From the IMG/VR virus record IMGVR_UViG_2744054962_000001: a DNA stretch of 64,000 bases; one strand, 5' to 3'. Position numbers and translations under genes: made by a program. Positions 15 through 56,815 of this stretch are shown piece after piece. The stretch is from a virus. Taxonomy: Duplodnaviria; Heunggongvirae; Uroviricota; Caudoviricetes. The notes beneath the pieces were generated by a model that was not told where the DNA came from, searched no databases, and was given only the letters and a program-made list of their open reading frames with translations. The stretch's first letter is position 1, and each line of letters opens with the position of its first letter.

Positions 15-3000
15 ATGGCGCAAAATGCGCCGTTCGCGATGCAGGCGTTAACAGATTCCTTCGTGAAGTTTCGTTCTGCTGGCTTAGATCCAACCGATGG
101 TTCTCTGAAGGCGCTGGTGGACTCCGTTGCTCGTTTTGGTGGTGATAGTGAGCTGTTGAAACGTGCGGCTGTGGCCGTTCAGCAGATGTCCGGTAAGGGC
201 GTTGTGTCAATGGAAGAGCTACGTCAGCAATTAGGTGAAGCCGTTCCTAACGCGATGCAGGCAATGGCAGACGCCGCAGGCATCACTATGGGGGAACTGA
301 CTAAAGCCGTTGCCAGCGGTACGGTTGAGGCAAAACAGGCGTTGTCTCTGATGTTTGTTGGTCTGCGTGCGGAGAATGAGAACGCAGCGAAAGACATGAT
401 GCAAACCTACACAGGTGCGCTGGCGCAACTTCAGACGTCATTCACGTTATTTGCTGATCGGGTTGGTCAGGCCGGATATCTGGATTCTCTATCGAAGGGG
501 ATGAAAGAACTGGCTTCAATCATGAATAGCGCCGAAGGGATTTCGTTTGCCAATTCTTTAGGCTCGGGGTTAACGACGGCAATCGATGGGTTGCGTCAGC
601 TTGCTCAATGGTTAGCAAAGAACCAAGAGCTGGTGATTAATCTCGGTAAGGTCGTGGCCGCGATGGTTGCGTTCAAACTGATGCGAGCAGGGATCATGGG
701 GGTAGTTGGCGCAGGCAGCCAGATGGTTAGCACCTTTGCCACGATGGCGACCGCCATACAGACTCCATTTAACCTCGGCGCTACAGCAGTAACCCGATTC
801 AATCGTGCGGCACGTATGGGGCTGGCTCCGATCCCCTCTCTTATTTTCGCCATCCGTGGGGCGATTACGGGGCTTAAAGGCGCTTTTGCTGGATTAACGG
901 CGTTCATTGCAGCAAACCCTATAGGGGCAGCATTTACAGTTGCCACTGTAGCTGTTGCTGGCCTAATCACGTACATGACCATGCTCCGCAGCGAAACTTC
1001 AAAGGTCGTTGACGAGATTAGGAAAATACCAGAGGCGATGACGGCGGCCAAACGTGCACAGATGGCGGAGTATAAAGCGCGTCTTGAGCAACAAATCACG
1101 CAAAAGGAACAAGAGTTAAAATCTGGCGAAAAGGTGGTTTATGGGCCGGGTATGGCCGGAACTACAGTAAAGATTAATCAGGATGAACGTAAGCGTATAG
1201 AAAATGAGCTAAATGACCTTCGTAAGAAACGCGATAAAACTACTGGGGCAATTGAACGCGGAGACATTGCTGTAGCCAAACGTCTTGCAAAAGATGCGGC
1301 AGAATCACAGATAGAGAAAATACGGGAAGAGAATAGAGACTTTGCGGCAACATTCGTGAAAGCCCGGCAGGAGGCTCTGGATAAGATCCAGAAAATCAAT
1401 GATGACGGTTCACTTTCAGATGACGAAAAGAACAAGCTATTGGCACCGTTACGTGAAACGGTAAACAAAAGCTATCTGGAGCCTGCGCAAAAACTGGTTG
1501 ATTCACTTTCTTCTCGTAAGAATGCTGTCGAGGGGCAAATAGCCACTCTTAATGATCAGCTTGAAAAAGCGAAAAAGGAAGGAAACACCGAGCAGATCAA
1601 GAAACTGCAAGGCAGTATTCGTGGTTATCAGGAGAATTTGGAAGTCGTCGCTCAGGAACTGACTCAGGCAGAGTTCGAGAGAGATAACGCTGCCAAAACT
1701 GGTAAGGGCGTAATGTCAAACCAGGGGACTGTTCTGGGGTTAGGTACAACTGATAAAGCTGCTCAGAAGGCGCTGGCGCAATATATGCGAAACCAGATGG
1801 ATTCTGCGACTTATCAACGTACTTTGCCTGACGGCACTCCGATGATGGACTTCGAAGGTAAGCCGATTATTGGGCCTAAACAACTCAAGACGCAGCTTAA
1901 TTTGCAGAAAGCATCCAGTGCCAGCTCTCTGGAGAAAATGAGCGATGAAGAGCGTGCCGCAGCCATTGCCGCACTTACTAAAGCTCGTGAACAGGATGCC
2001 GCAGCCGCCGAGAAAGCAGCCCAACGATCAGCTAATGCCTCGCAGCGTGCGGCCAAGAAAGAACAGGCAGCGCAACAGAAACTGGCGGCCGGATATCAGA
2101 AGGCTCTGGATAAAGCCGATCAGCTTATGGGGCAAATGGGTGAAAGCTCTAAGGCTACGGTATCGTTTGATCAGTCTCTTCGCGATACAACAAAATCGCT
2201 AACTGATTTGGCTAATGCGATTCCTAACGAGTTCATCACTCAAGAGATGATCGACAAGGCGAAAAAACGTCTTGAAGACCTCAAAAATGCGACACCTGAA
2301 TATCGCGAGATGTTTAATCGCCGCAATGTTGAGCAGATGATCTCCACTTGGGCACCGAAGGCGGATTCCATTATTAGTGCTGGCTATACGCCGTCTCGCG
2401 AAGATAAAGTTGCTGATTTCGAAGACACCTACAACCGCAATCTCAAAGCGTTGATAGAACTTCGTGATAAGGCGTCTGATCCTAAAGTTGTGGCGCTTTA
2501 TACAAAGAAAATCAATCAACTGATTGCTGCTGGCAATACCGCGCTTATTAAAGAGACGGGGACTGCGACGCAGAAGTTGGCACTGGAATACGAAAACCTG
2601 GCAGAGCAGATCGAAAGCACCTGGACTGATTTGTTTAGTGGCTTAACTGATGTCCTGACTGATTTCGTTATTAACGGGAAGATGAGCTTCTCCAGCCTGT
2701 CTCAGTCCATTTTGAAAGATATCACCAATATGGTCGTGAAGTCGCAAATCACGCTGCCTCTAATGAACATGTTGGGGATGGGAGCCACCGCAGCTGGTAG
2801 TTCACAGAGTGGTAATTTGCTCACCGGGGTTGCTTCCGCAGTTGCCAATCAAGGTGTGCGCATAAGCAACACTGTTAATGGCGACAAGTCGGTAGGAGAA
2901 GCCACGAAGGAGACGTCCAGTTCGGTAACTGGATTGGGGCAAACAACACAGCAGACCACCAGCGCAATTGGCACTGCAACAAATGCGATTGGTAGCTGGG

Positions 3001-3689
3001 TATCAGGGCTATTTGATAGCACTGAAGCCAAAGATGCCGAGACAAAAGCCGTGAAGGACTCCATCTTCTCGATGCAGAACCTCAGCTCTGTTACCGGCGC
3101 TCTGTCTGCCGCGTTTGCAATGCTTGGAGCTAATGCTTCCGGCTCTGGTAATAAGTGGTTGAATTTCGGCGCGACAGTTGCATCTGGTTTGGTTTCAGTA
3201 TGGGCTGGTGGTGGATTCGATGGATTGATGTCCGGTTCTTCTGGCTCAACTTCCGGGTTCAACAATCTGACCAGTTCTGCTGCCGATGGCACGAATGGTA
3301 TTCCTGCAATTCCGAAGTTTGCAAATGGTGGCATATTCGGAAAAGACGGCGTGATCCCGCTCCGGGCATACCAGAAAGGCGGTATCGCCAACTCACCTCA
3401 ATTGGCGTTGTTTGGGGAAGGCGATATGAATGAGGCGTATGTTCCATTGCCTGATGGTCGAACAATCCCTGTAACGCTCAGTACCGATGGTATGAGTGGA
3501 GGAGGAAATGTTCTTTCTCCGGTATCAATTGAGATCAACGTCCATAGTGACGGTAGCACAACTGAATCCGGCGATACAGAAAGCATATGGAACAATGCCG
3601 CTCAACGGATGAAAGCAATCGCGCTTGAGACTATCGCTCAAGAGAAACGCCCTGGCGGATCACTCAACCCAAACACTCAACGTAACTAA
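15..3689 (+). CDS. tail tape measure protein
   Basis: 1224 aa, long alpha-helical/coiled-coil body, hydrophobic segments, lambda gpH-like C-terminal region (GGIFGKDGVIPLRAYQKGGIANSPQLALFGEGDMNEAYVPLPDGRTIPV); sits immediately upstream of gpM/L/K/I/J-like genes. Confidence 0.85.
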   Translation: MAQNAPFAMQALTDSFVKFRSAGLDPTDGSLKALVDSVARFGGDSELLKRAAVAVQQMSGKGVVSMEELRQQLGEAVPNAMQAMADAAGITMGELTKAVASGTVEAKQALSLMFVGLRAENENAAKDMMQTYTGALAQLQTSFTLFADRVGQAGYLDSLSKGMKELASIMNSAEGISFANSLGSGLTTAIDGLRQLAQWLAKNQELVINLGKVVAAMVAFKLMRAGIMGVVGAGSQMVSTFATMATAIQTPFNLGATAVTRFNRAARMGLAPIPSLIFAIRGAITGLKGAFAGLTAFIAANPIGAAFTVATVAVAGLITYMTMLRSETSKVVDEIRKIPEAMTAAKRAQMAEYKARLEQQITQKEQELKSGEKVVYGPGMAGTTVKINQDERKRIENELNDLRKKRDKTTGAIERGDIAVAKRLAKDAAESQIEKIREENRDFAATFVKARQEALDKIQKINDDGSLSDDEKNKLLAPLRETVNKSYLEPAQKLVDSLSSRKNAVEGQIATLNDQLEKAKKEGNTEQIKKLQGSIRGYQENLEVVAQELTQAEFERDNAAKTGKGVMSNQGTVLGLGTTDKAAQKALAQYMRNQMDSATYQRTLPDGTPMMDFEGKPIIGPKQLKTQLNLQKASSASSLEKMSDEERAAAIAALTKAREQDAAAAEKAAQRSANASQRAAKKEQAAQQKLAAGYQKALDKADQLMGQMGESSKATVSFDQSLRDTTKSLTDLANAIPNEFITQEMIDKAKKRLEDLKNATPEYREMFNRRNVEQMISTWAPKADSIISAGYTPSREDKVADFEDTYNRNLKALIELRDKASDPKVVALYTKKINQLIAAGNTALIKETGTATQKLALEYENLAEQIESTWTDLFSGLTDVLTDFVINGKMSFSSLSQSILKDITNMVVKSQITLPLMNMLGMGATAAGSSQSGNLLTGVASAVANQGVRISNTVNGDKSVGEATKETSSSVTGLGQTTQQTTSAIGTATNAIGSWVSGLFDSTEAKDAETKAVKDSIFSMQNLSSVTGALSAAFAMLGANASGSGNKWLNFGATVASGLVSVWAGGGFDGLMSGSSGSTSGFNNLTSSAADGTNGIPAIPKFANGGIFGKDGVIPLRAYQKGGIANSPQLALFGEGDMNEAYVPLPDGRTIPVTLSTDGMSGGGNVLSPVSIEINVHSDGSTTESGDTESIWNNAAQRMKAIALETIAQEKRPGGSLNPNTQRN

Positions 3690-3694
3690 CTATC

Positions 3695-3716
3695 GACTGC
3701 CCCGACCGGGGCAGTC
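3695..3716 (+). terminator. stem-loop after tape measure gene (GACTGCCCC-gacc-GGGGCAGTC), no clear T-run
   Basis: 9-bp perfect inverted repeat read from sequence; could be attenuator or RNA processing site rather than terminator. Confidence 0.3.
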
Positions 3717-3731
3717 TCACAAGGATGTGAG

Positions 3732-4067
3732 ATGGAAAGACAAACGTTTAATTGGTATCCAGATTACGAATCTGAAAAAAGCGTAAAACCGAATGTAACG
3801 GTACTTAATTTTGGTGATGACTACGAGCAGCGACAGGCTCAAGGTCTTAATCGTATTAAAGAAGAATGGTCGTTAACCTTTACCAGATCATACAACGAAA
3901 TTAATGCAATCGATGACTTCCTGACTGAGCGAGCAGGCGTTGAGTCGTTCTATTGGGTTAATCCAAGAGGAAAACGGATTGTAGTTGTATGTGACAGTCA
4001 TACGGTCAAGCGATATCAGGGGTACTGTGTCTTAACTGCTACATTCAGACAAGTATTTGAGGCTTAA
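3732..4067 (+). CDS. minor tail protein (lambda gpM-like)
   Basis: 111 aa, position directly after tape measure and before gpL-like gene; size and synteny as in lambda. Confidence 0.55.
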   Translation: MERQTFNWYPDYESEKSVKPNVTVLNFGDDYEQRQAQGLNRIKEEWSLTFTRSYNEINAIDDFLTERAGVESFYWVNPRGKRIVVVCDSHTVKRYQGYCVLTATFRQVFEA

Positions 4068-13165: not shown

Positions 13166-13870
13166 ATGGCTACATCGACAGTAATTCCAGGAGACATCAC
13201 CACGTTAAAGGGAGATGTCAGTAAAGCCAAGGAAGATATTTCCTCAATTAACGGAAAAGTATCAACGCTTCAGACTGATATGACCAGTGCAAAGCAGGAT
13301 ATCAGCACCAGATACACAAAAACTGAAGTTGATAATAAGCTGAAAAACAAAGTGGAAGTGAACGATCTGGAAAGTGGTCGTTATGGTGGAGATTTTTACC
13401 CGCTGACTGGTCGTGAAGCGTTTTATTTGTGGGGATTGGGCACGACTACAGCGGCGGCAAACCTTTATCTTAATCCTGACCCCGCAATTTCGTCTGTACT
13501 GCGGTCCACATCGTCTATCCGCTATAAACATTCAGTAGAGACGATAGATTCGGAGCACGCCGATCTCATTTTCAAGATGCGCCCTGTGTGGTACAGGTCG
13601 CAATGCGAAAATGACAGGCGCGATTGGGGATTCTATGGATTGATTGCCGAGGAAGTAGGAGAAATTGCCCCTCAGTTTGTTCACTGGCGACCAGCTAACG
13701 AGAATGATGCTCCTGAAGCTATTTCCAGCAATGGCCTTGTTGCCGAAGGTGTAATGTACGAACGTCTGGTTGTTCCACTGATTCACCATATCCAGAAACT
13801 GACTGAAAGAGTTGATGAACTTGAGTCAGAATTAAAGTTGTTATCAACTTCCCGAAGCGATATTGGATAA
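13166..13870 (+). CDS. tail fibre protein with C-terminal intramolecular chaperone (peptidase S74-like) domain
   Basis: C-terminal region (IRYKHSVETIDSEHADLIFKMRPVWYRSQ...GFYGLIAEEV...YERLVVPLIHHIQKLTERVDELESEL) matches the auto-processing chaperone domain pattern of endosialidase-type fibres. Confidence 0.5.
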   Translation: MATSTVIPGDITTLKGDVSKAKEDISSINGKVSTLQTDMTSAKQDISTRYTKTEVDNKLKNKVEVNDLESGRYGGDFYPLTGREAFYLWGLGTTTAAANLYLNPDPAISSVLRSTSSIRYKHSVETIDSEHADLIFKMRPVWYRSQCENDRRDWGFYGLIAEEVGEIAPQFVHWRPANENDAPEAISSNGLVAEGVMYERLVVPLIHHIQKLTERVDELESELKLLSTSRSDIG

Positions 13871-15797: not shown

Positions 15798-16319
15798 TTA
15801 TTCTTCGAACAATTTTTCGATAGATTTTGTAGGATAGAACAAAGAACGCTCGTTGTTACCAACCAGCTGGATAAAGCCTAAACTTTTATAAAACGCCTTG
15901 GCTTTGTCATTTAACGCCTCAACGAAAAGTCCATGAATGCCTACAGCAAGAGATGCATTGTACACAACGCGCATTGCATGTGTTACAAGCATTGAGCCAA
16001 ATCCTTGACCTTGAAGGGACTTGTCCAAAGCCAGCCTACCCAAAGTAACACTTGGAACATTCCGATAAGGAACCTTCTTTTGTTTGCTTCTTGAAGGTAA
16101 GGACTCCTTTTCAAAACAACTACCTGACAAAGTGTAATATCCTAACACTTTTGGCCTTTCTTCTTGAGTGCAAAGCACATAAGCACGAAGAATTTTTCCC
16201 TCATGCTGCCTTTTTAAGTGGTTGGCTAAAAAGGCGTTTAGTGACTCTTCGCCGCAATCAAAACCGTTTAGATCATAATCTTTCTCTCCAGAGAAAATCT
16301 CTATCGTTGTATTGCTCAC
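15798..16319 (-). CDS. GNAT-family acetyltransferase toxin (TacT/KacT-like)
   Basis: 173 aa, GNAT motif A (QGQGFGSMLV) and paired with upstream DUF1778-like RHH antitoxin. Confidence 0.7.
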   Translation of the reverse strand: MSNTTIEIFSGEKDYDLNGFDCGEESLNAFLANHLKRQHEGKILRAYVLCTQEERPKVLGYYTLSGSCFEKESLPSRSKQKKVPYRNVPSVTLGRLALDKSLQGQGFGSMLVTHAMRVVYNASLAVGIHGLFVEALNDKAKAFYKSLGFIQLVGNNERSLFYPTKSIEKLFEE

Positions 16320-16326
16320 GAGTAAA

Positions 16327-16596
16327 CTACTCCATGCTTTTCAGACGATCAGCAGCTCGTTTCAGCTTGTCGTTCGGTGCCGGAGGATTGCTTATAGCGT
16401 CCATAACCAGATTCCAGGATTCTTCATTCAGAACTAGTCTACGGTGTTGCTCTATAACTTTCACGGCACGTTCAGATGCACTGCTAACCATAAACTGAGT
16501 AATGCTCTGGTTAGACATTGCGGCAGCTTCCTCGATGATGCTTTTATCGTCATCGGTTAATCTCAAATCGATGCGCTGCTTTTTTAGTGCTGACAT
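16327..16596 (-). CDS. RHH antitoxin (DUF1778/TacA-like)
   Basis: MSALKKQRIDLRLTDDDKSIIEEAAA... pattern; AGGAGG 7 nt upstream of this Met; ORF track extends to 16635 but internal start preferred. Confidence 0.7.
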   Translation of the reverse strand: MSALKKQRIDLRLTDDDKSIIEEAAAMSNQSITQFMVSSASERAVKVIEQHRRLVLNEESWNLVMDAISNPPAPNDKLKRAADRLKSME

Positions 16597-16914
16597 GTAT
16601 TCCTCCTGATGGCCGTGATGTAGGAAGGCCATCAATCTCCTCTGTTCAAACTGAGTTTTCGACTCAAAAATTACTTTAAAAGGCTATAGCCCATTACGTG
16701 TGCATTATCAAATTGTGTACGGCATATCACCGTACTTGTAATATAGAGGTCATTGTTACTTTTTTCAACAGACAAATACAAGCTATGATTGCCAATTGTT
16801 AATCACAACCTACCATTTAACCTTTACACCGCAGCCGTAGGCATTTAGGCTATATCACATATAAGAAAACAAGTTGTTTCAGACGATAATTATATACGCA
16901 AAGGGAACTCTCCA

Positions 16915-28253: not shown

Positions 28254-28328
28254 GATGGTGTAGCTCAGCGGTAGAGCAGTTGGCTGTTAACCAACTGGTC
28301 GGTGGTTCGAATCCACCCACCATCGCCA
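28254..28328 (+). tRNA. tRNA-Asn (anticodon GTT)
   Basis: cloverleaf read by hand: acceptor GATGGTG/CACCATC, D-arm GCTC-AGCGGTA-GAGC, anticodon loop CTGTTAA, T-arm GGTGG-TTCGAAT-CCACC, encoded CCA. Confidence 0.8.
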
Positions 28329-28330
28329 AT

Positions 28331-28406
28331 GCCGGTTTAGCTCAGTTGGTAGAGCACCTGCCTTGTAAGCAGGATGTCAGCGGTTCGAATCCGTTAACCG
28401 GCACCA
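28331..28406 (+). tRNA. tRNA-Thr (anticodon TGT)
   Basis: acceptor GCCGGTT/AACCGGC, anticodon stem CCTGC/GCAGG with loop CTTGTAA, T-loop TTCGAAT, encoded CCA. Confidence 0.8.
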
Positions 28407-28414
28407 ACACAATT

Positions 28415-28501
28415 GGAGAGTAGAGAGCATGGTGCTCAAGCGGTCTTGAAAGCCGTCCCATTGCGCAAGCGATGATGGTTCGATTCCATTACTCTCCGCC
28501 A
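28415..28501 (+). tRNA. tRNA-Ser (anticodon TGA), type II with long variable arm
   Basis: acceptor GGAGAGT/ACTCTCC, anticodon loop CTTGAAA, variable-arm hairpin CATTGC-gcaa-GCGATG, T-loop TTCGATT, encoded CCA. Confidence 0.7.
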
Positions 28502-39525: not shown

Positions 39526-39798
39526 AAAGAATTATGGCGCTTGTTGAGGAAGTCACTCCTCTTACGCACTTTGTTTTGCCATGCCGGCAGTTAGCTTCTG
39601 CCTTTGACTATTCATGCGGCAACCCCGCATTTCGCCACAATGGGCAATTCACTTTTATGGAATAAACTGGCCGTTGTGTCGATTTAATTAGCATGGCCTT
39701 ACCATGCTAATTTATTCAACTTGTACAATCCTACAAATCTATCCACTCAGGCTTACACCGTCTTCGTTATTGTAGAAATGAGGATCATCAGCGTTGAA

Positions 39799-40014
39799 TC
39801 AGCTTAGAGCAACGACATTTGCTGCTGCTGGGCCTTTAGCACCATTCTCGATAGAGAATTCGACCTGCTGGCCTTCTTCCAAAGTGCGGAAATTATTACT
39901 CTGAATTGCCGAAAAATGTACAAAAACATCTTTACTGCCATCAGCAGGAGAAATAAAGCCAAAGCCTTTATCAGAGTTAAACCATTTTACTAAACCAGTC
40001 ATTTTATTAGACAT
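39799..40014 (-). CDS. cold-shock protein (CspA family)
   Basis: [23 protein letters not shown]...[12 protein letters not shown]1/RNP2-type cold-shock domain; start at internal Met of the track ORF. Confidence 0.8.
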
Positions 40015-40343
40015 AGATATTACCTTCTTAATTTTGTGAGCCACATAGTGCGGCGAGAATTTGATCTGTATAGATTGGGACTTACTTAGGCACTTAAGGA
40101 GGAGGCTCACGAAGAAGGGAAATCAGAAGATAACACTGAACTGAGACTGCTTTACTAAAACTGCTTACATAAGGTCTGTCTTGCAAACCAACGATGCTAT
40201 TAACGCATACCCCTTCTTTTCATGCAACCTTTATTTTTCAAAGATAACTAATTTTTGTCACCATTGGTTTAGTAAACGTTAACGAACCAGACGATGCCAG
40301 ACACCTTTACAGAGAACAGATGCCCGCCAATTGGCGGGCATCA

Positions 40344-49379: not shown

Positions 49380-49860
49380 ACCAACCACTGCGGTGAGTAG
49401 CCAGCTCACCGCATTCGTATCAGCTCATTATCCACCGTGGTCTGCAGTCCTCTCTTCCTACATATCTGCTAACCACTGTAGCGAGTAGACAGCCTTTCAT
49501 TCGCATCAAACAACCACTATGGTGAGTATTGGAGTGAGATGTCCAGCTGGTATCCACTATGGTGAGTAAGCCTTTGCTGTTTTCAGTGGATATCCACTCG
49601 CCACAGTGGATACGCTCAAAGATGAGGGCGACAACAACCACTATAGACAGTGAATTTTCCAAGATACCCAGTGACCACTAACCTCGCAGCCCTTGTTTCA
49701 TCAGTGTTAGTGATCACTAACATTTAATTCAGTATTTGCATTCTACTGCCTACAGTGGTTATCAACAGATAACGATACTCACTATAGTGGATAGCGAATT
49801 ACAGATATAAGTAAGGCTCACTACAGTGGATAGTGAGCCTTACTACTAACTACAGTGGTT
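49380..49860. repeat. iteron array downstream of repA (candidate copy-control/incompatibility locus)
   Basis: at least 10 copies in both orientations of a CCACTATAG / CTATAGTGG(AT) core, e.g. CCACTGCGGTGAG, CCACTATGGTGAG, CACTATAGTGGATAG, CTACAGTGGATAG. Confidence 0.6.
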
Positions 49861-49863
49861 GGG

Positions 49864-50919
49864 CTATTTGCGAGTCTTTGCCTTGCGCAACTCTTCGAGA
49901 AGCGCCAGTTCTTCTTTACTCAACATGACCATTTTGCCTTCTTTTTCGTCAGGCACAACGTCGATAATGTCATCTTGATTCTCATCTGGGAGGCTATATT
50001 CCGTCTCATCATTATCGATTTTTGTTGATATTTGTGCCTGGCGTAACTTTGGCCGCCTATAGTGGATGATGAAGTAGACCGAGTTTCCGCGCTTAACTTC
50101 CGTGTAATCGAGATATCCTATCTCTCGCAGCTGTTCCATAGCCTTTCTTACCGTCGCATTCTGAGTAATAGTGCGACTTGTCAGATTAAGTCTGGCGCGT
50201 AAACGAGCTAGTGATATTGGTGCCGGATCAGGCGGCAAACTTTCAATAAAAGTATAAAGCGCCTGAGCGGATTCTTTTCTTGAGAGTTCGTTTATAGCCC
50301 GGAGTTGCAGAAGAACCTTTTTGTCGAACTGGTAGAGTTCGAAAATCTTGGGATCTGCTTTCAGTTCGACCGTATCGTGCTTGACACTATATTTTGCCGT
50401 TTGCACAAGATGCGTTACGTAAAACTCATCAGAGCCTTTGCTACGGAACGAGATGGTATTTGTGGCAATACGGCTTAGCGAACTGTCCAGGCGTTTGCGT
50501 AACTTCGCTGATGACCTGGCGGTCGGAATGCCACACAGCCTTACAAACTCAACGAACGGCAACGTGACAGTATCGCCAACGACCTTGTGTTTGGCAAACG
50601 CGTGGATTATTCCCACCCACGTTTTAAAGTCGTTATCCATATCAAGCCGAAGGCCAGAGATCCTTATGTCTTCGTACCCTTCGGCTTTTGCCAGAGACAG
50701 CTGTTTGAGTTCAGCAGAGGCATCCATAGAGACCATTTGCCCCTTTCTTCCTCTGGATGTCGATTTCAGCGTCGGAACGAAGAGGCCCAGACGCATCAAA
50801 GCAACAGGCTGAACAGTGTTATTAGTGTTAGGAACCAACGTAACAACTTCGCCTGTCTTTTTATCTGTTTCTGAAAATGCTTCAACGATCGCTATGTTTT
50901 TATTGCCGTTTTCGCTCAT
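49864..50919 (-). CDS. repA: plasmid-type replication initiator RepA
   Basis: 351 aa; gene flanked on both sides by iteron arrays and upstream DnaA box, the classic iteron-replicon layout; protein identity not searched. Confidence 0.55.
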
Positions 50920-50939
50920 TCCAAATGTCTCTTGTTATT

Positions 50940-51600
50940 CGACGGCTTTGGTGGCCTTTGCTGATTACAGTGGATAGTAGCACTCATCACAGCGGTTATC
51001 CTACCGTCTATAGTGGTTTTTCTCCTCTCTATAGTGGTTGCTTTGCTCCCTATAGTGGATTATTCGCTCTCTATAGTGGATATCGATCATGTCTGAAGGC
51101 AGATGGCGCAACGGTTTGAGGTGGGCGGGGATCTTATTGGGTCTTTATGGGTCTCTTTGGTTCTCTTTGTGATCTGAATTACTGGATCGGGCCTGTGGAT
51201 AAAATCAGAGGATTTCAAGAACAGGTAACTCTACTCTTCTGTGGATATTTAAGGACATAAGAATCATGACTAAGAGTAGAGTTTAAAATATATCTATGTA
51301 TATCAGTATGTTAATGAAGAATTAAGTCATTAAGTTATCCATAAAAGACAATGTGCTCTACTCTCTACAGTGGATATATACAGCTCTCCAGAGTGGTTGT
51401 TTTACTCTTCATAGCGGTTATTCAGCTCTCTACAGAGGTTTCTTTGCTCTCCATAGTGGATGGCAACACCCTTTCAGACCAGTAACCGCAACGGCTAGAG
51501 GCGATCGGGGATCTCTTTGGATCTTCTATTTGATCTTACTTGGGATCTCTTATTTGGATCTATCCAGTGGATAACTGGGATAAGTAAAACAGGCAAATGC
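50940..51600. other. candidate plasmid origin: iterons at about 21-22 bp spacing, DnaA box, AT-rich segment, GATC cluster
   Basis: repeats CTCTATAGTGGWT at roughly 51006, 51027, 51049, 51069 and 51362-51455; TGTGGATAA (DnaA box) near 51193; GATC-rich stretch 51500-51560; AT-rich 51240-51350. Confidence 0.55.
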
Positions 51601-51661
51601 AGATTAAGGTATGCCTAATGAGTTATCGTAGCATCGGCCAATAACTACTGAAAAAACGATT

Positions 51662-52306
51662 ATGGATCTAAAACGCACGCGCTGGGTTCGTCGTCTTGAG
51701 GACGGCTCCTACACTATCGAATCAAATTCCAACCTGAATAAGCAGAAGTTGCTTTGTGACATCTGCGGTATAGCGGCGAAGTGCCCGATCTACGAAACCA
51801 GAATTAAACTTGATAAGGCTGGTGTGAATTTTCATTTAAACAGTTGCATCAGGTACGTTCCATTGCTCGCATTTCGTAAACCGATCATCGGATTGGATGC
51901 ACCCTACTTCAACACACTCCGTTCAGGTGTGACGTGGCAAGATCGTTTATCACCAGACAAGCTGATTTGCCTTGTATCCGCAGACACAGGGAAAATCATC
52001 CGTTTTGGGAAAGTAGACAAGGTTTACTCAGGCCCAGTAGACGAAATGTTGCGGAAACACAGCCGGTTTAATCATCTCTGTATGGGTGGTGAGAAAATCG
52101 AGAAGGTAGAAGAAGTGATCCGCAAATCCTACGGACACTTCCTGACCAAAGATAGCCTGCTCACCGCAATCTACATCAGACATGTAAAACGTGAGTTCGA
52201 CCTCGAATACCACAGTGAAGAAGAGCTTAACCTTGTTGACCCACGTCCAAAAGCTGGCGTCATAAGCATAAACGCAGCGCGTAAAAAGCCCACTGAGACG
52301 TTTTAA
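51662..52306 (+). CDS. hypothetical protein
   Basis: 214 aa, several Cys, no recognised motif. Confidence 0.3.
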   Translation: MDLKRTRWVRRLEDGSYTIESNSNLNKQKLLCDICGIAAKCPIYETRIKLDKAGVNFHLNSCIRYVPLLAFRKPIIGLDAPYFNTLRSGVTWQDRLSPDKLICLVSADTGKIIRFGKVDKVYSGPVDEMLRKHSRFNHLCMGGEKIEKVEEVIRKSYGHFLTKDSLLTAIYIRHVKREFDLEYHSEEELNLVDPRPKAGVISINAARKKPTETF

Positions 52307-52381
52307 ACGTAATCTCAGGGTTTAACCGAGGCATAAAATATGGTGCATTAGAAAGACACTGAGGGCTTTTAGGATTAATAC

Positions 52382-52822
52382 ATGAGTGAATTTTATTCAA
52401 GGGCAGCAACTGTGACAGACATGCCTTTTATCATGGCTGAGTTCGAGGACGGCGCACGCAAAGGTCACTTCTACGAAGAGATCCTCACATCAAAGGGGGG
52501 GTAAAACCTTTGAGCAGCAGACCAGACTGGCAATCAAGACGAACGAGCGGGGCCAATACTCCGGGCATTTTATCTACATCCTGCTGCATCGTTCTGATGA
52601 CAAAAAGTAGGACTAATCTGGTTCTGTGCCGCACTCGATCCGACTGGCGCACCTTGACTTGAACTCCGTGCCGTCAGTATTGTCAAAGAGCTTCGCGGAA
52701 AAGGCTATGGGTCAATGCTGGTGTCCGACATGATCGCATCAAACCCTAGTCAGCCGATGATGGCAAAGTGCTACGTCAAATCCTCGCAAATGGCCGACAT
52801 GCTGTTTCGCGACCCAAAATAA
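52382..52822 (+). pseudogene. disrupted GNAT acetyltransferase gene (frameshifts, includes poly-G tract)
   Basis: reading across three frames gives MSEFYSRAATVTDMPFIMAEFEDGARKGHFYEEILTSKGG*, ...FIYILLHRSDDKK*, ...VKELRGKGYGSMLVSDMIASNPSQ... (GNAT motif A); no ORF of 60 aa or more on the track; G-run near 52493. Confidence 0.4.
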
Positions 52823-52853
52823 AAAGCACCCCATACGAGGTGCTCCTGAAGAA

Positions 52854-53357
52854 TTAATCACAAGTCGTTTTGCCCGTGCCGTCTGGGTACACGATTGATT
52901 CGCACGACTTGCCATTCAAGAAGCTGTAGCTGCGAATAGTACCGTCCGGATCGCGTTCTGTGTAAGACTCCAGCTTCTTCGGATCAGCGTTCTTACGGCG
53001 CACTTCTTTCAGCTCATATTGGGCCTTGTACATCTCCTTGTAGGCTTCCTCTATGCGTTTCATTTTGATCTCCTTTGCCTCTTTGCTGCCCAGATAAGCG
53101 GCCATTTCAAGATCACAGTTGAACCTGATTTTTGGGAATGAAGGCGCGTATCTACCCATGACTTTGGTTAAATCATTGTCGTTAGAGACATAATAGGCAT
53201 GGCTTCCACACAATTTGTCGGCTCTGTCTTGGGCAATTGCTACGCTTGAAGTGGAGTAAATATCAACGTACCCGCCAGCTGACTTTTCATCTTGAGGTGG
53301 TTTTGGTACGCATCCGATCAGAGCAATGGCCATCGTCCCTATAATTACGCGTTTCAC
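52854..53357 (-). CDS. hypothetical lipoprotein
   Basis: signal peptide with lipobox LIGC; 167 aa. Confidence 0.4.
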   Translation of the reverse strand: MKRVIIGTMAIALIGCVPKPPQDEKSAGGYVDIYSTSSVAIAQDRADKLCGSHAYYVSNDNDLTKVMGRYAPSFPKIRFNCDLEMAAYLGSKEAKEIKMKRIEEAYKEMYKAQYELKEVRRKNADPKKLESYTERDPDGTIRSYSFLNGKSCESIVYPDGTGKTTCD

Positions 53358-53583
53358 CGTCAGTTCTCCTTTTTCGTTTGGTTGTCATCATTAAGTGACT
53401 GCGATTATAGAGTGGCTTGTAACATCTAGAAGTCTTTGCTGTCCATAAAAATAGGTATTCACTTACCTATTAATTTGCCATAATCATGTGTCTGTGAACA
53501 TTCTTAATGGCCGTGTTATCTGGATTGTTCGCCTCTCAAACACACTTAATATCTGTATCAAAATAACCACAAAGGAAAAACAC

Positions 53584-54669
53584 ATGACTTTGCCATACGG
53601 CGTCATTTCTGACTGCCACTACCACAAATGGGATGCGTTCTCCACGACGAACGCTGAGGGGCTTAACTCCAGACTTGAAATACAGTTGGAAGCAACGAAA
53701 GAAGCAGCCATCGCCATGAAGAAGGCCGGTTGTAAGTACATGTTGGTTGCCGGTGATACATTTCACGTCCGAGGAACTGTGTCCCCTTCTGTTTTGCATT
53801 ACGTAACTGAAACGTACAAGTGGATTATCAACGAGCTTGATCTGACAGTAGTAATGCTGGCCGGTAATCACGATCTTGAAACCAACGATTCAGTATATAG
53901 CGCCAACGCAGCAGCATCGCTGAGTTCTATCGGCGTGGTAATCGTATGTGGCAAGCGCCCACACTCAATAAAAATTGGTGATGTGACTGTCCACCTGATT
54001 AGCTGGCGTAACAATCATGCGGAGCTTATCAGCGATCTGAAAGCATTACGTAAGAGCGTAGAAGGTGATAATCATGACGTTGTTATCCATACATCCATTA
54101 ACAAAGCCATTCCAACAATGCCTGACGTCGGTATCGATGCGCAGGAGTTAAAGGATATCGGCTTTCGTCTCGTGCTTAGTGGGCATTACCACAACCACAA
54201 AGAGGTCATTCCTGGAGTTATCAGTGTCGGTGCGCTGACCCATCAAAATTGGGGAGATGTTGGATCTCTGGCTGGTTACATGATCGTAAACCCGGACGGC
54301 TGTTTCAGTCACTACGAAACCAGTGCGCCTAAATTCATTAACCTGGAAGATTATGTTGCCGATGACCAAATTCGCGGCAACTACGTGCGTTTCCGCGCCG
54401 TAATTGAGAACGATGAAGAAGGCATTAAGTACCAGAACATCCTCAAAACAATGGGTGCAAAAGGTGTCGTATGCAACTTCATCCGTAAGTCATCAATGAT
54501 GGAAGGGACAGCAAGCACAACGGAAACCAGCAAAATCGATAGCCTGGGAGAGTCGGTATCTGCTTATTGCAAGATTGTCCACGATACTGACGGCGGATTT
54601 GATCTGAGCAAGTTGGATATTTTGTGTCAGGAAATCCTCACCGAAGCGGAGAGTTCGGAGGCTGTGTGA
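53584..54669 (+). CDS. sbcD: SbcD/Mre11-like metallophosphoesterase nuclease
   Basis: calcineurin-like motifs DCHYH, GDTFH, AGNHD, GHYH; start at internal Met preceded by AAAGGAAAAACACATG (track ORF starts 53488). Confidence 0.7.
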   Translation: MTLPYGVISDCHYHKWDAFSTTNAEGLNSRLEIQLEATKEAAIAMKKAGCKYMLVAGDTFHVRGTVSPSVLHYVTETYKWIINELDLTVVMLAGNHDLETNDSVYSANAAASLSSIGVVIVCGKRPHSIKIGDVTVHLISWRNNHAELISDLKALRKSVEGDNHDVVIHTSINKAIPTMPDVGIDAQELKDIGFRLVLSGHYHNHKEVIPGVISVGALTHQNWGDVGSLAGYMIVNPDGCFSHYETSAPKFINLEDYVADDQIRGNYVRFRAVIENDEEGIKYQNILKTMGAKGVVCNFIRKSSMMEGTASTTETSKIDSLGESVSAYCKIVHDTDGGFDLSKLDILCQEILTEAESSEAV

Positions 54670-54898
54670 GGCAAAGTCGTTATGGGAGCTTTCGAGACTT
54701 TGCCATCACGATGAAAAGACTTGAACGAGGCCAGACGGTGATGTTTCACAAGCCCTACCCGCCACAAGGAAATCCCGTAGCGTTTTATCTTGGAAGGTTA
54801 ACCAGAAAAGGCGTATTGAGACGCAGATCCTTCCCGGCGCATACGGAGTTCAGATTGAAAGAAGGTCAAAAGCTAACACACGGTATCAAAGGTGTTAT

Positions 54899-56815
54899 AT
54901 GAAGTTTTTAAAGCTCCAGGTTGAGAATTTTATGGCTATCGCCAGCGCGGAGGTCGAGTTAGATCAGCGTGGTTTAGTGCTCATTCAGGGTGTTAATAGT
55001 GATGATAGTTCCGCATCAAGTAATGGCTCTGGAAAGTCAACGCTAATGAATAGCCTGATGTGGTGTCTTTATGGCGAAACAGCTCATGGTGTGAAGGGTG
55101 ACGATGTGTTGTCTACCGACCATGAAAAGAACTGTCGTGTTGCAGTAACCATCGAGGATGAAGGCAAGAGATATGCGATCATTCGTCACCGTAAACACAA
55201 AGAGTTCAAAAATCGGCTTATCGTTCGTGGTGAAGACGGCGATATGACGAAAGGCAAAGATGCGCTGACGCAAGAGTTCGTCGAGCGTCTGATCGGTGCA
55301 TCTAAAGAGGTTTTCATGGCTTCCATCTATGCGAGCCAAGAAGCTATGCCAGATTTACCTGGAATGTCCGACAAAAACCTCAAAACCATCGTAGAAGAAG
55401 CCGCTGGCGTTGACAGACTGACACGCGCCTACGCTATTGCTCGTGAGCGAGCTAATGCAGCTGCCGCACGTATGGATGTGGTTAAAACCAAATTGGAGTC
55501 GACAATCTCGACCATTGAGGCAACACAGTCAGAAATTGAGTCAGCGAAAGCCTCCTCTGAATCATGGGAGCAAGAGCGTTCTAAACGTTATGACGATGCC
55601 CTGGCTGGGCTGGCCAGTGCCGAAGTTGAGTTAACGGAAGTTGAACTTGAGATCCGCACTCTTCCCGAACAGATCCGTGATACCGAGAAGGCAATCGAAA
55701 GTGAGCGCAAAAAGTTAGCCTCAAAAGAAGAACATGACGCCAAGTTGCTCAAAGTTCGTGGTGCGATAACTGATATTCGGGCAAGCATCAAAGCTACAGA
55801 AAATAGTCAGGCTGATGCAATGAACCGCGCGCGTAATTTTAAGACCAAAGCAGAAGAGGTTGGTACTAAAGTGGGATCACCATGCCCTACTTGTGGCAAA
55901 GCCTACTGCGAAGAAGATCTATCAACGGTGAAGGAGAATTTCATTGAACAAGCACGTCAGGAAATTGGTCAGGCGAAGACACTTGCAGAGGCAATGGCTA
56001 AACACAAAACGAATCTTGAGAAAGCGTTAAGCATTGAGTCTGCCCTTGTTAAAACGACACCTGATGTAACGGCTATCATTGCCCGGATTGAAGAGCTTAC
56101 GAAACAACTCTCATCTTTGCGTCATCGTGAGAAGGAGGTTGTTGCTATTGAGTCTCTTGTGACTCGTGCTCGTACTGAGGTCGATCGTATATCAAAAGAG
56201 ATTAATCCGTTTATTGCTCTTATCGCCAGACACGAAGATAACCTGGTATCCAGTAAGTCTACCTTCAAGTCCTTAAAAGATGAGTTGAAGGCTATTCAGG
56301 AACAAACGTTGCTATTGGAAAAAGCTCGTCAGGTCTACTCTCCTGCCGGGGTGCGTTCTCATATTTTGACGTCTGTTACGCCTTTCCTGAATACACGCAC
56401 TGCCGAGTATCTCAATACGTTGTCTGACGGGAATATTACTGCTGAGTGGTCGACGATGGATGTCACTAAAAAAGGTGAGTATCGCGACAAATTCAACATT
56501 AGTGTGCAGAAGAAAGGTTCAAGTAAGTCGTTCCAGACCCTCTCTGGTGGTGAGAAGCGGAAGGTTCGCATTGCGTGTTCTTTGGCATTGCAGGATCTGG
56601 TTAGTAACCGGGCGAGTAAAAACATCGATTTGTTTATCGGCGACGAAATTGACGATGCACTCGATACAGCCGGTCTTGAACGCCTCATGGGTATTCTGGA
56701 GTCCAAAGCTCGCGAGCGAGGTACTGTGCTGATTATCTCCCATAAAGAGATGAAGTCATGGTTCCGGGAAACTATTACGCTGGAAGTTAAAGAGGGGCGC
56801 AGCTATGTCGTTTAA
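54899..56815 (+). CDS. sbcC: SbcC/Rad50-like ATPase
   Basis: N-terminal Walker A NGSGKST, long coiled-coil with CPTCGK zinc-hook-like motif, C-terminal signature LSGGEKR and Walker B DEIDD. Confidence 0.75.
   Translation: MKFLKLQVENFMAIASAEVELDQRGLVLIQGVNSDDSSASSNGSGKSTLMNSLMWCLYGETAHGVKGDDVLSTDHEKNCRVAVTIEDEGKRYAIIRHRKHKEFKNRLIVRGEDGDMTKGKDALTQEFVERLIGASKEVFMASIYASQEAMPDLPGMSDKNLKTIVEEAAGVDRLTRAYAIARERANAAAARMDVVKTKLESTISTIEATQSEIESAKASSESWEQERSKRYDDALAGLASAEVELTEVELEIRTLPEQIRDTEKAIESERKKLASKEEHDAKLLKVRGAITDIRASIKATENSQADAMNRARNFKTKAEEVGTKVGSPCPTCGKAYCEEDLSTVKENFIEQARQEIGQAKTLAEAMAKHKTNLEKALSIESALVKTTPDVTAIIARIEELTKQLSSLRHREKEVVAIESLVTRARTEVDRISKEINPFIALIARHEDNLVSSKSTFKSLKDELKAIQEQTLLLEKARQVYSPAGVRSHILTSVTPFLNTRTAEYLNTLSDGNITAEWSTMDVTKKGEYRDKFNISVQKKGSSKSFQTLSGGEKRKVRIACSLALQDLVSNRASKNIDLFIGDEIDDALDTAGLERLMGILESKARERGTVLIISHKEMKSWFRETITLEVKEGRSYVV

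Follow-up and report, generated by a model that had tools for sequence, protein, structure and literature searches.

The window, by which we mean the whole stretch of 64,000 nucleotides analysed here, belongs to an SSU5-like phage-plasmid of Escherichia coli with a backbone of the Cyrano/pLF82 type, Escherichia phage Cyrano being pLF82 of the AIEC strain LF82 (OV696614; PMC9928086). The backbone that flanks the locus described here, that is, repA, its iterons, a gene for a 214-aa protein, sbcD and sbcC, is 92-100% identical to that of Cyrano. Between the gene for the 214-aa protein and sbcD lie the remains of a GNAT acetyltransferase gene, a hairpin terminator and a convergent gene for a predicted lipoprotein (Table 1). 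An Rfam scan of the whole window at gathering thresholds placed no known RNA within 51000-53700, and a promoter scan of 51500-53650 was uninformative, as it returned fewer sites than the shuffled control.

Table 1. Features of the locus and of the replicon around it, in coordinates of the window
Feature	Position	Strand	Basis or remark
TacT-like GNAT toxin	15798-16319		With TacA antitoxin; pair 15798-16635
RepA (Rep3_N/Rep3_C)	49864-50919	-	Iterons on both sides, visible in sequence
214-aa backbone gene	51662-52306	+	ORF; full-length match to phrog_2105
GNAT N-acetyltransferase pseudogene	52382-52822	+	Three-frame translations; DNA alignment to intact SSU5 and Enterobacter genes
G7 homopolymer	52495-52501	+	One G more than the G6 of intact alleles
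TAA	52502-52504	+	Met at once by the G7 reading frame
A5 homopolymer	52602-52606	+	-1 A frameshift relative to the A6 of intact alleles
TAG	52608-52610	+	From A5 plus GCA>GTA; in the GNAT frame coming from upstream
Nonsense TGA for CGA	52655-52657	+	Arg92 of the intact protein; directly upstream of motif A
Surviving GNAT motif A segment, VKELRGKGYGSMLV	52682-52723	+	Three-frame translation
Junction of 54-bp in-frame deletion	52799-52803	+	Between two ATGCT direct repeats (microhomology)
Hairpin terminator	52822-52847		Between convergent GNAT remnant and lipoprotein gene
167-aa predicted lipoprotein gene, intact	52854-53357	-	ORF; full-length match to phrog_18989
SbcD-like metallophosphoesterase	start 53584
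SbcC-like ATPase	start 54899

A reading made from the sequence alone had described the locus as an accessory patch that begins with an unknown Cys-rich protein. An accessory segment is indeed present, from 52297 to ~53440, but the gene for the 214-aa protein belongs to the backbone: it is found in SSU5, pMT1 and Cyrano (CYRAN_64, which Cyrano's annotators also labelled ASCH), it is kept in 483 plasmids, and its homologs are confined to SSU5-like replicons of ~100-125 kb. Its dN/dS relative to SSU5 is 0.055. The term Cys-rich is generous because the protein has only six cysteines (2.8%); four of these, C32, C35, C41 and C62, do form an invariant N-terminal cluster in the alignment. Searches with the protein returned no Pfam family (ASCH, PF04266, included) and no NCBIfam family, and a PDB profile search was empty. 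In the AlphaFold2 (AF2) model the core, residues 65-176, reaches a pLDDT of 75-91, whereas the N-terminal 64 residues, which carry the four cysteines, and the C-terminal tail are modelled at low confidence. A Foldseek search of the PDB with this core matched 1t62, 2z0t, 9kyf, 5y6b/5guq and 2kku (E 1.6e-4 to 1e-2, probability 1.0, TMt 0.45-0.78), and the core is accordingly described here as having a predicted ASCH/PUA-like fold.

The next element is an ordinary pseudogene, the remnant of an ortholog of Salmonella phage SSU5 gp71 (SSU5_071, YP_006906703.1), a protein of 164 aa when intact that is annotated as an acetyltransferase or GNAT family N-acetyltransferase. That a decayed GNAT gene with motif A lies here had been recognized before and is confirmed: over its retained part the remnant is 92% identical at the DNA level to the intact SSU5 gene, which places its GNAT identity far beyond chance, and the frame-corrected remnant matches gp71 at 134 of its 145 retained residues (92%). 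Comparison of the locus among relatives, which the sequence-only reading had recommended, revealed an intact GNAT gene at the same place in SSU5 and in plasmids of Enterobacter, Salmonella and Citrobacter, and GNAT sequence over most of its length is present in ~180 plasmids.

The intact protein shows the features of the GNAT family. SSU5 gp71 matches PF00583 marginally (21.0 bits, cut-off 20.7) and the phrog_15387 'acetyltransferase' family at 1.6e-108, and several family members carry precomputed PF00583/PF13508 matches. The acetyl-CoA loop of motif A (Q/R-x-x-G-x-G/A) is present, and in the window it survives as R-G-K-G-Y-G, in a segment that aligns with the acetyl-CoA-binding R-x-x-G-x-G segment of GNATs in the PDB; G106, K107, G108 and G110 are invariant across the family alignment. 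The AF2 model of the intact ortholog (pLDDT 91.4, pTM 0.82) found 628 PDB matches at E<=0.001 with Foldseek, and all of the 50 listed are GNATs. No substrate can be inferred, since NCBIfam yields only a 16-bit partial match to amino-acid N-acetyltransferase, the PDB sequence search gives matches at E>0.3 only, and the fold matches are spread evenly over SpeG, RimL, PAT and Naa60 at 12-18% identity.

Four lesions separate the remnant from its intact relatives, and no uninterrupted ORF in the window covers the whole GNAT domain, given two frameshifts, a nonsense codon and a 54-bp deletion. The frameshift at a G homopolymer that had been noticed near 52493 is the addition of one G to the tract. 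Three frames together had been thought to spell the broken gene; GNAT-like sequence in fact occupies only two, running in frame 1 to the G tract, in frame 2 to the A tract and then again in frame 1, while frame 3 contains nothing GNAT-like anywhere across the remnant. Likewise, the stops and frameshifts reported earlier are present, but one of the stops arose by a genuine nonsense substitution, and the loss of 54 bp from the 3' part had been overlooked. This deletion takes out residues 141-158 (LKRRGFHLFDTSPKGTQM), including the invariant MLKRRGF block, and with them the end of a helix (135-143) and a strand (147-151) in the secondary structure of the AF2 model. In addition, the family-invariant R69 is a histidine in the remnant. 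Each of eight E. coli plasmids, sequenced independently of one another and originating in the UK, China, Korea and Ecuador, has all four lesions, as does ESBL242, and the A5 tract is constant in 8/8 plasmids and in the two additional contigs that were read. In searches of plasmids and E. coli genomes, no intermediate from which the order of the lesions could be read turned up between 92.5% and 99% identity. One metagenome variant of low coverage (ERZ15184976) lacks the TGA, having a ~60-bp SSU5-like patch at that point, and keeps the other lesions; it could be a lesion intermediate or, equally, the result of gene conversion or of chimeric assembly. The locus thus holds a pseudogene of the GNAT family and not a functional member of it. 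RefSeq records of the same allele carry no annotation across the remnant, which deserves the label of a GNAT pseudogene there.

The G tract varies in length among isolates. G7, G8 and G9 are seen directly in the DNA of the eight plasmids, and lengths from G5 to G11 were inferred by looking up the exact truncated products in public assemblies, so that the following numbers count assembled contigs and not reads, and some of the homopolymer calls behind them may be sequencing or assembly errors. G7, with a 40-aa product, is the most common form (547 contigs), followed by G8 (93 aa, 148 contigs), G6 together with A5 (75 aa, 16), G9 (76 aa, 14), G10 (41 aa, 4), G5 (92 aa, 2) and G11 (94 aa, 1). None of the tract lengths found in these assemblies gives a full-length product, and thus the tract controls nothing. 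Intact alleles are stable by comparison: G6, A6 and the 164-aa ORF occur in 9/9 of those read (SSU5, Enterobacter pMS-37c and seven metagenome or virome loci), and pattern scans of viromes and metagenomes for tract variants returned intact G6 alleles only (7/7). In the intact alleles on IncF plasmids the G tract is missing, the corresponding codons spelling SKVG, SEVS or SNVG and not SKGG. We infer that the variation reflects neutral slippage in a dead gene and not phase variation, the tract being free to drift because the GNAT gene is no longer under selection.

The third gene, which had been predicted as a lipoprotein gene on the opposite strand, was borne out as one for a predicted lipoprotein. 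Its product begins with a putative signal peptide, MKRVIIGTMAIALIG, followed by Cys16, and its lipobox LIGC, with Val at the +2 residue, fits the pattern [LVI][ASTVI][GAS]C on the translation and is conserved in SSU5 and Enterobacter. The GTG start codon is preceded by AAGGAG at a distance of 8 nt. The protein shares 99% amino-acid identity with SSU5 gp72 and with the Enterobacter ortholog, and the gene is strongly constrained (dN/dS 0.03); it is the part of the cassette that selection still maintains. Searches of Pfam, NCBIfam and PDB sequences gave no match to it. A PADLOC search for defence systems returned nothing beyond a 13-bit HamB match to this lipoprotein, which we judged meaningless, and membership of the patch in a defence system was rejected. 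The terminator shared with the GNAT remnant has an 11-pair stem with 5 G-C pairs and a T-rich tail on the minus strand. On its plus-strand side there is an A-run, and the hairpin is conserved in SSU5.

The history of the locus is suggested by its contrasting similarities to SSU5 and Cyrano. In Cyrano only a 254-bp spacer separates CYRAN_64 from the SbcD-like gene, with neither GNAT nor lipoprotein gene. Cyrano lacks the segment 52300-53410, which is 89-97% identical to SSU5, whereas the flanks of the patch are 99-100% identical to Cyrano and 65-90% to SSU5; dS follows the same division, being 1.3-4.3 for the flanking genes but 0.27-0.30 for the GNAT gene and 0.22-0.25 for the lipoprotein gene. 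These contrasts argue that the GNAT-lipoprotein pair is a cassette brought in by recombination. The direction could be gain by this lineage, or loss by the Cyrano type and later gene conversion, as this reading draws on dS contrasts in place of a rooted tree. Between the ASCH-fold gene and sbcD there is thus a slot in which exchange recurs: it is empty in Cyrano and filled with the GNAT and lipoprotein genes in SSU5. In pMT1 the same slot holds a gene for an ABC substrate-binding protein.

The frame-corrected GNAT remnant has a dN/dS of 0.105 relative to SSU5, which resembles the value of 0.119 between intact genes; most of the divergence therefore predates inactivation, and the loss would be recent. 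Four lesions and a low dN/dS are a slightly unexpected combination if the death was recent, and this reading assumes that slippage and deletion by microhomology happen quickly. The gene has also been lost or broken independently elsewhere: pMT1 retains only nt 1-39 and a 36-nt piece, the Enterobacter allele P0055 has a frameshift at another site, and P0053 and P0054 are truncated fusions.

Based on these results we propose, with a probability of about 0.9, that the locus combines a core 214-aa gene with a recombined-in cassette in which the GNAT gene is dead by four lesions, its G tract drifts and the lipoprotein gene is under selection. In most E. coli relatives the backbone ASCH-fold gene and sbcD have no more than the 254-bp spacer between them. 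A cassette of ~1.15 kb, consisting of the GNAT gene, the shared terminator and the convergent lipoprotein gene, would have recombined in from a relative of the SSU5/pHCM2 type. The GNAT gene would then have died after acquisition through the gain of a G, the loss of an A that led to TAG, the CGA>TGA substitution and the microhomology deletion of the invariant C-terminal motif, and replication slippage would since have let the tract drift between G5 and G11 around a mode of G7. The 40-aa N-terminal peptide or the remnant transcript might conceivably have a role.

The sequence-only reading had suggested a slippage-controlled gene, that is, a contingency gene in which poly-G slippage toggles expression of the acetyltransferase. 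The position of the tract inside the ORF and its variable length among isolates are what such a gene would display, but for this allele the explanation is extremely improbable, since the A5 tract with its TAG and the 54-bp deletion lie downstream and are fixed in every member read, the TGA lies downstream as well in all eight plasmids (only the ERZ15184976 contig is without it), and even with G6 or G9, which are in frame, translation would break off at 75-76 aa. The stable or missing tract of the intact alleles argues in the same direction. The same reading took a fixed tract and relatives without any intact GNAT to be the marks of a plain pseudogene; the tract varies and intact relatives exist, and the locus is nevertheless a plain pseudogene because several of its lesions are fixed. 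It also allowed that sequencing error had broken a gene that is really a single ORF. Two of the four lesions do fall in homopolymers, where long-read assemblies are prone to error, but a nonsense substitution and a 54-bp deletion are not homopolymer errors, the lesions recur in the eight complete plasmids, which are independent of one another, and in both of the other contigs read (one of them, ERZ15184976, without the TGA), and hundreds of assembled contigs encode products that fit the frameshifts. We therefore give an intact gene hidden by miscalls next to no credence.

A further suggestion was that the remnant is a decaying second toxin; in a fuller form of this idea it would be of the TacT/AtaT/KacT kind and would degenerate because the plasmid already has such a pair. 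Elsewhere the window does encode a genuine GNAT toxin together with its TacA antitoxin, a pair that served as positive control (90 bits on PF08681); the intact protein is near it in size (164 aa vs 173 aa), their motifs A are alike, and the GNAT gene has been lost repeatedly. BLASTP of gp71 against this toxin, however, aligned only the 27 residues of motif A (11/27 identical), no TacA/DUF1778 or other small antitoxin gene lies beside the intact ortholog in SSU5, Enterobacter or three IncF contexts, and the 75-bp gap between the 214-aa gene and the remnant contains no ORF. The upstream 214-aa protein has no Pfam match and an ASCH-like predicted fold, and intact GNAT copies endure without a partner in ~180 plasmids. 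The generic fold of the protein, for which AtaT ranks 44th (TMq 0.58) behind SpeG, RimL and PAT, the absence of toxins among the matches of a PDB phmmer search and the lack of a PADLOC match all point away from a toxin, an identity that we rejected and consider very improbable. More serious, though still unlikely, is the possibility that loss was itself selected, the GNAT being costly or counter-selected in E. coli hosts and the cassette kept for the lipoprotein only. Consistent with this, ~219/241 E. coli SSU5-like plasmids with the 214-aa gene have no GNAT sequence at the locus, the gene was independently lost or truncated in pMT1 and an Enterobacter allele, the pseudogene lineage is common, and the lipoprotein gene is strongly constrained. 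E. coli does, however, have intact alleles of ~90% identity on IncF-type plasmids, and a neutral, dispensable cargo gene would show repeated loss equally. Finally, the PDB describes YqfB (9kyf) as an N4-acetylcytidine amidohydrolase, and one can imagine the ASCH-fold protein and the GNAT as eraser and writer on a nucleoside, RNA or other target, possibly in an enzymatic antidote relationship; death of the GNAT would then have left an orphan eraser in this lineage. We regard this as a long shot, and the evidence leans against it because the two genes do not go together: 483 plasmids keep the ASCH gene vs ~180 for the GNAT, which occurs alone on IncF plasmids.

The preferred reading, a dead GNAT gene in a recombined-in cassette, has little biological weight of its own: it is a textbook example of how cargo turns over in the variable, plasmid-like region of SSU5-supergroup phage-plasmids, the plasticity of which was described earlier (PMC7969092). 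The G5-G11 tract could be used as a fast strain marker for a common E. coli phage-plasmid lineage and warns against trusting homopolymer calls too readily. The two genes here whose functions merit finding are those for the strongly constrained lipoprotein and for the conserved protein with an ASCH-like fold and four cysteines.

Several known systems help to place the locus. Its closest counterpart is SSU5 gp71, which likewise sits upstream of sbcD and is flanked by the 214-aa gene and the convergent 167-aa gene; the remnant differs from it by the four lesions, such that the 164-aa protein can no longer be encoded. The core of the 214-aa protein superposes on that of the E. coli ASCH protein YqfB, an ac4C amidohydrolase (TMt up to 0.78, rmsd 2.6 Å), and other ASCH-domain matches are Zymomonas ZmASCH (5guq), EF3133/DUF984 (1t62) and PH0355 (2z0t). 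Unlike these proteins, to which it is ~11-20% identical, it has an added N-terminal stretch of 64 residues with four invariant cysteines and a C-terminal tail. The intact GNAT resembles the toxins of the TacT-TacA, AtaT-AtaR and KacT-KacA pairs in fold, size and motif A but has no antitoxin partner in the contexts examined, is alike in motif A only and stands alone in many plasmids. Cyrano and the window carry the same KacT-type toxin pair elsewhere in the replicon. Homopolymer-tract contingency genes, which are phase variable, are established in Neisseria, Haemophilus and Campylobacter. The remnant shares with them an intragenic poly-G tract that differs in length between isolates; unlike in contingency genes, no tract length restores a complete ORF, and the functional alleles have a short and stable G6 or no tract at all.

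The broken acetyltransferase gene is genuine but unremarkable: a pseudogene hit several times, derived from an annotated cargo gene of a phage-plasmid, with a homopolymer that drifts neutrally. Megablast with positions 51600-53450 of the window matched 483 plasmids, the best being Escherichia coli plasmid ESBL242 (99.8%), and Salmonella phage SSU5 at 87% identity and 99% coverage. A three-way alignment covering 49800-55500 gives 92-100% identity to Escherichia phage Cyrano, the phage-plasmid pLF82 from AIEC strain LF82 (PMC9928086), and just 65-90% to SSU5, for repA, the iteron regions, the 214-aa gene, sbcD and sbcC. This pattern of backbone identity places the window, judged by its sequence, among the E. 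coli phage-plasmids that belong to the SSU5 supergroup (PMC7969092). Iteron-like repeat arrays with the core CTATAGTGG and variants, read by eye at 50990-51080 and 51350-51465, flank AT-rich DNA that lies downstream of repA, an arrangement like that of RepFIB-type origins. Elsewhere, the window carries a three-tRNA cluster (28254-28501, plus strand: Asn-GTT, Thr-TGT, Ser-TGA) on which ARAGORN and Rfam agree, and at 39774-40192 (minus strand) it matches the Rfam family of the cspA thermoregulator, RF01766, over its full length (187 bits; gathering score 78); this is a cspA-like cold-shock 5'UTR/gene carried by a phage-plasmid.

The sequence-only reading had placed a three-part patch between the origin and sbcCD, and its description proves essentially right: RepA lies on one side and the SbcD-like and SbcC-like genes on the other, and all three elements are present where it had put them. 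The GNAT gene was said to be spelled by three frames together and interrupted by stops and frameshifts, one of them at a G homopolymer. The decay is confirmed; the sequence is, however, shared by two frames only, with the N-terminal part (MSEF...SKGG) in frame 1, the middle (KTFEQQ...SDDKK) in frame 2 and the last part (VGLIWF...VKELRGKGYGSMLV...LFRDPK) in frame 1 again, and frame 3 holds nothing GNAT-like. Lesions were defined by DNA alignment with the intact SSU5 and Enterobacter genes, with coordinates extracted by script, and four independent disabling changes were found. Among the residues taken out by the deletion are the MLKRRGF block, invariant in the family, strand 147-151 and the last part of helix 135-143; in addition, the family-invariant R69 is His in the window copy.

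Features of the patch, its flanks and the toxin pair of the window
Feature	Position	Strand	Basis or remark
GNAT toxin	15798-16319	-	173 aa; PF13508/PF00583
TacA/DUF1778 antitoxin	16327-16635	-	PF08681, 90 bits
RepA (Rep3_N/Rep3_C)	49864-50919	-	domain match
214-aa ORF	51662-52306	+	six Cys
GNAT stretch	52382-52822	+	frame translations
Lesion G6 to G7	52495-52501		frameshift, TAA directly after
Lesion A6 to A5, with GCA>GTA	52602-52606		frameshift, yields TAG at 52608-52610
Lesion CGA to TGA	52655-52657		stop at codon 92
54-bp deletion between ATGCT repeats	junction 52799-52803		residues 141-158 lost
Lipoprotein ORF	52854-53357	-	starts MKRVIIGTMAIALIGC; canonical signal peptide and lipobox
Metallophos protein, SbcD-like	starts 53584		domain match
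638-aa SMC_N/AAA_23 protein	starts 54899		SbcC-like by Cyrano annotation

The intact counterpart is gp71 of SSU5, a 164-aa protein encoded at the same position. It scores marginally against Pfam GNAT (21.0 bits; cut-off 20.7), matches phrog_15387 'acetyltransferase' (1.6e-108) and is modelled with a confident GNAT fold (pLDDT 91). The intact 164-aa ORFs of SSU5, of Enterobacter plasmid pMS-37c and of seven loci from viromes or metagenomes have G6/A6 without exception. Lone intact copies of about 90% identity, without the 214-aa or lipoprotein gene and without any G tract at the tract site, are found on IncF-type E. coli plasmids beside RelE/ParE pairs, IS1 or repA; therefore, the GNAT gene moves between unrelated plasmid backbones. 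Three such alleles (pZ1323CEC0004-2, pJNE21-003_2 and p510016_84; about 90% nucleotide identity) also have some 70 nt of upstream sequence in common, and their neighbours are RelE/ParE pairs, IS1A, repA or a serine acetyltransferase gene; the product of the first is longer by 12 residues at the C-terminus (176 aa).

A sequencing artefact would also produce a broken frame, but we reject this reading, as the identical four lesions recur in eight independently sequenced E. coli plasmids (ESBL242, pAMPD01, pLR-48_2, pEc-JB2-4, pE16EC0562-7, pRHB23-C03_2, pRHB31-C19_2 and the window itself). A slippage-controlled gene had also been proposed, with tract-length heterogeneity as its test, and such heterogeneity is real at the population level, that is, between isolates and contigs. 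Five of the eight plasmids have G7, two have G8 and one has G9, and when the exact truncated product predicted for each tract length was looked up in a 15-billion-protein collection, we found those of G7 (40 aa, 547 contigs), G8 (93 aa, 148 contigs plus minor variants), G6 with A5 (75 aa, 16), G9 (76 aa, 14), G10 (41 aa, 4), G5 (92 aa, 2) and G11 (94 aa, 1). Every variant thus yields a truncated product, the in-frame lengths G6 and G9 ending at the A5/TAG lesion, and intact alleles are G6/A6 or lack the tract; the heterogeneity reflects unconstrained slippage in a dead gene and not regulation.

Nor is the suggestion of a decaying second toxin supported. The window has a genuine GNAT toxin with its antitoxin upstream, which corresponds to the KacT-type pair of Cyrano (PMC9928086); this pair is the first toxin that the suggestion implies. 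With that toxin gp71 shares a 27-residue motif A and nothing more; no antitoxin-like neighbour was seen in the five gp71 contexts examined, PADLOC gave no match for gp71, and its fold search ranked SpeG, RimL, phosphinothricin acetyltransferase and Naa60 ahead of AtaT (rank 44).

The 214-aa protein is confined to SSU5-like replicons and is under purifying selection (dN/dS 0.055). It has an invariant N-terminal cluster of C32, C35, C41 and C62 and no profile matches in Pfam, NCBIfam or PDB sequences. In its AF2 model the four-Cys N-terminus is poor, and the core (residues 65-176, pLDDT 75-91) matches the ASCH/PUA-like structures EF3133, PH0355, the YqfB ac4C amidohydrolase and ZmASCH (probability 1.0, TMt up to 0.78), in agreement with the Cyrano annotation. 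That this protein and the GNAT form a functionally linked eraser and writer is very improbable, and the decoupled distribution of the two genes disfavours it.

The opposite-strand lipoprotein gene noticed after the GNAT is likewise present, as predicted from signal peptide and lipobox, with AAGGAG 8 nt upstream of its GTG start. Its product is 99% identical to the SSU5 and Enterobacter orthologues (dN/dS 0.03), which marks it as the selected part of the cassette, and Pfam, NCBIfam, PHROG and PDB sequence searches detected no relatives of known function. In the 240-kb record of E. coli pEc-JB2-4 (locus L006, 615-711), the annotation gives the gene that follows the pseudogene just 216 nt (record 13514-13729) rather than 504 nt; the lipoprotein gene may be truncated in this plasmid.

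The frame-corrected remnant differs from SSU5 with a dN/dS of 0.105, the same as between intact genes (0.119), which suggests that most divergence accrued while the GNAT was functional, so that inactivation would be comparatively recent. A metagenome contig of low coverage (1.16x; ENA ERZ15184976 NODE_185; locus L023, 2501-2955) has a variant with G8, A5 and the 54-bp deletion, and carries a SSU5-like patch of about 60 bp without the TGA. This is a hint that the TGA arose after the other lesions or was patched over by conversion; the contig may be a decay intermediate, a gene-conversion patch or a chimeric assembly.

The slot is a turnover point and the GNAT is dispensable. Among 241 Escherichia plasmids with a match to the 214-aa gene region, just 22 match the GNAT region; seven records match the latter at 99% identity or more, and all six that were read are E. 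coli plasmids with the pseudogene allele. One Enterobacter allele (P0055) is frameshifted at a different site, and some products (P0053, P0054) are C-terminal fragments fused to other sequences. In the slot of Yersinia pestis CO92 pMT1 (locus L015) the GNAT survives only as nt 1-39 and an internal fragment of 36 nt (2501-2611), the lipoprotein gene is gone, and the opposite strand carries instead a gene for an ABC transporter substrate-binding protein (2827-3849). Across 49800-55500 the window is a sharp mosaic: its flanks are 99-100% identical to Cyrano, and nearer the junction the identity drops within the 214-aa gene, from 100% to 92%, which fits a recombination tract, whereas the 1.15-kb GNAT-lipoprotein cassette (52297 to about 53440) is 89-97% identical to SSU5 and absent from Cyrano, which has only a 254-bp spacer in its place. 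At synonymous sites the GNAT differs from SSU5 with a dS of 0.27-0.30 and the lipoprotein gene with one of 0.22-0.25, against 1.3-4.3 for the adjacent 214-aa and sbcD genes. The low dS of the cassette and the empty Cyrano slot argue that GNAT, terminator and lipoprotein gene form a cassette that backbones of the SSU5 and Cyrano types exchanged through recombination, long after these backbones diverged.
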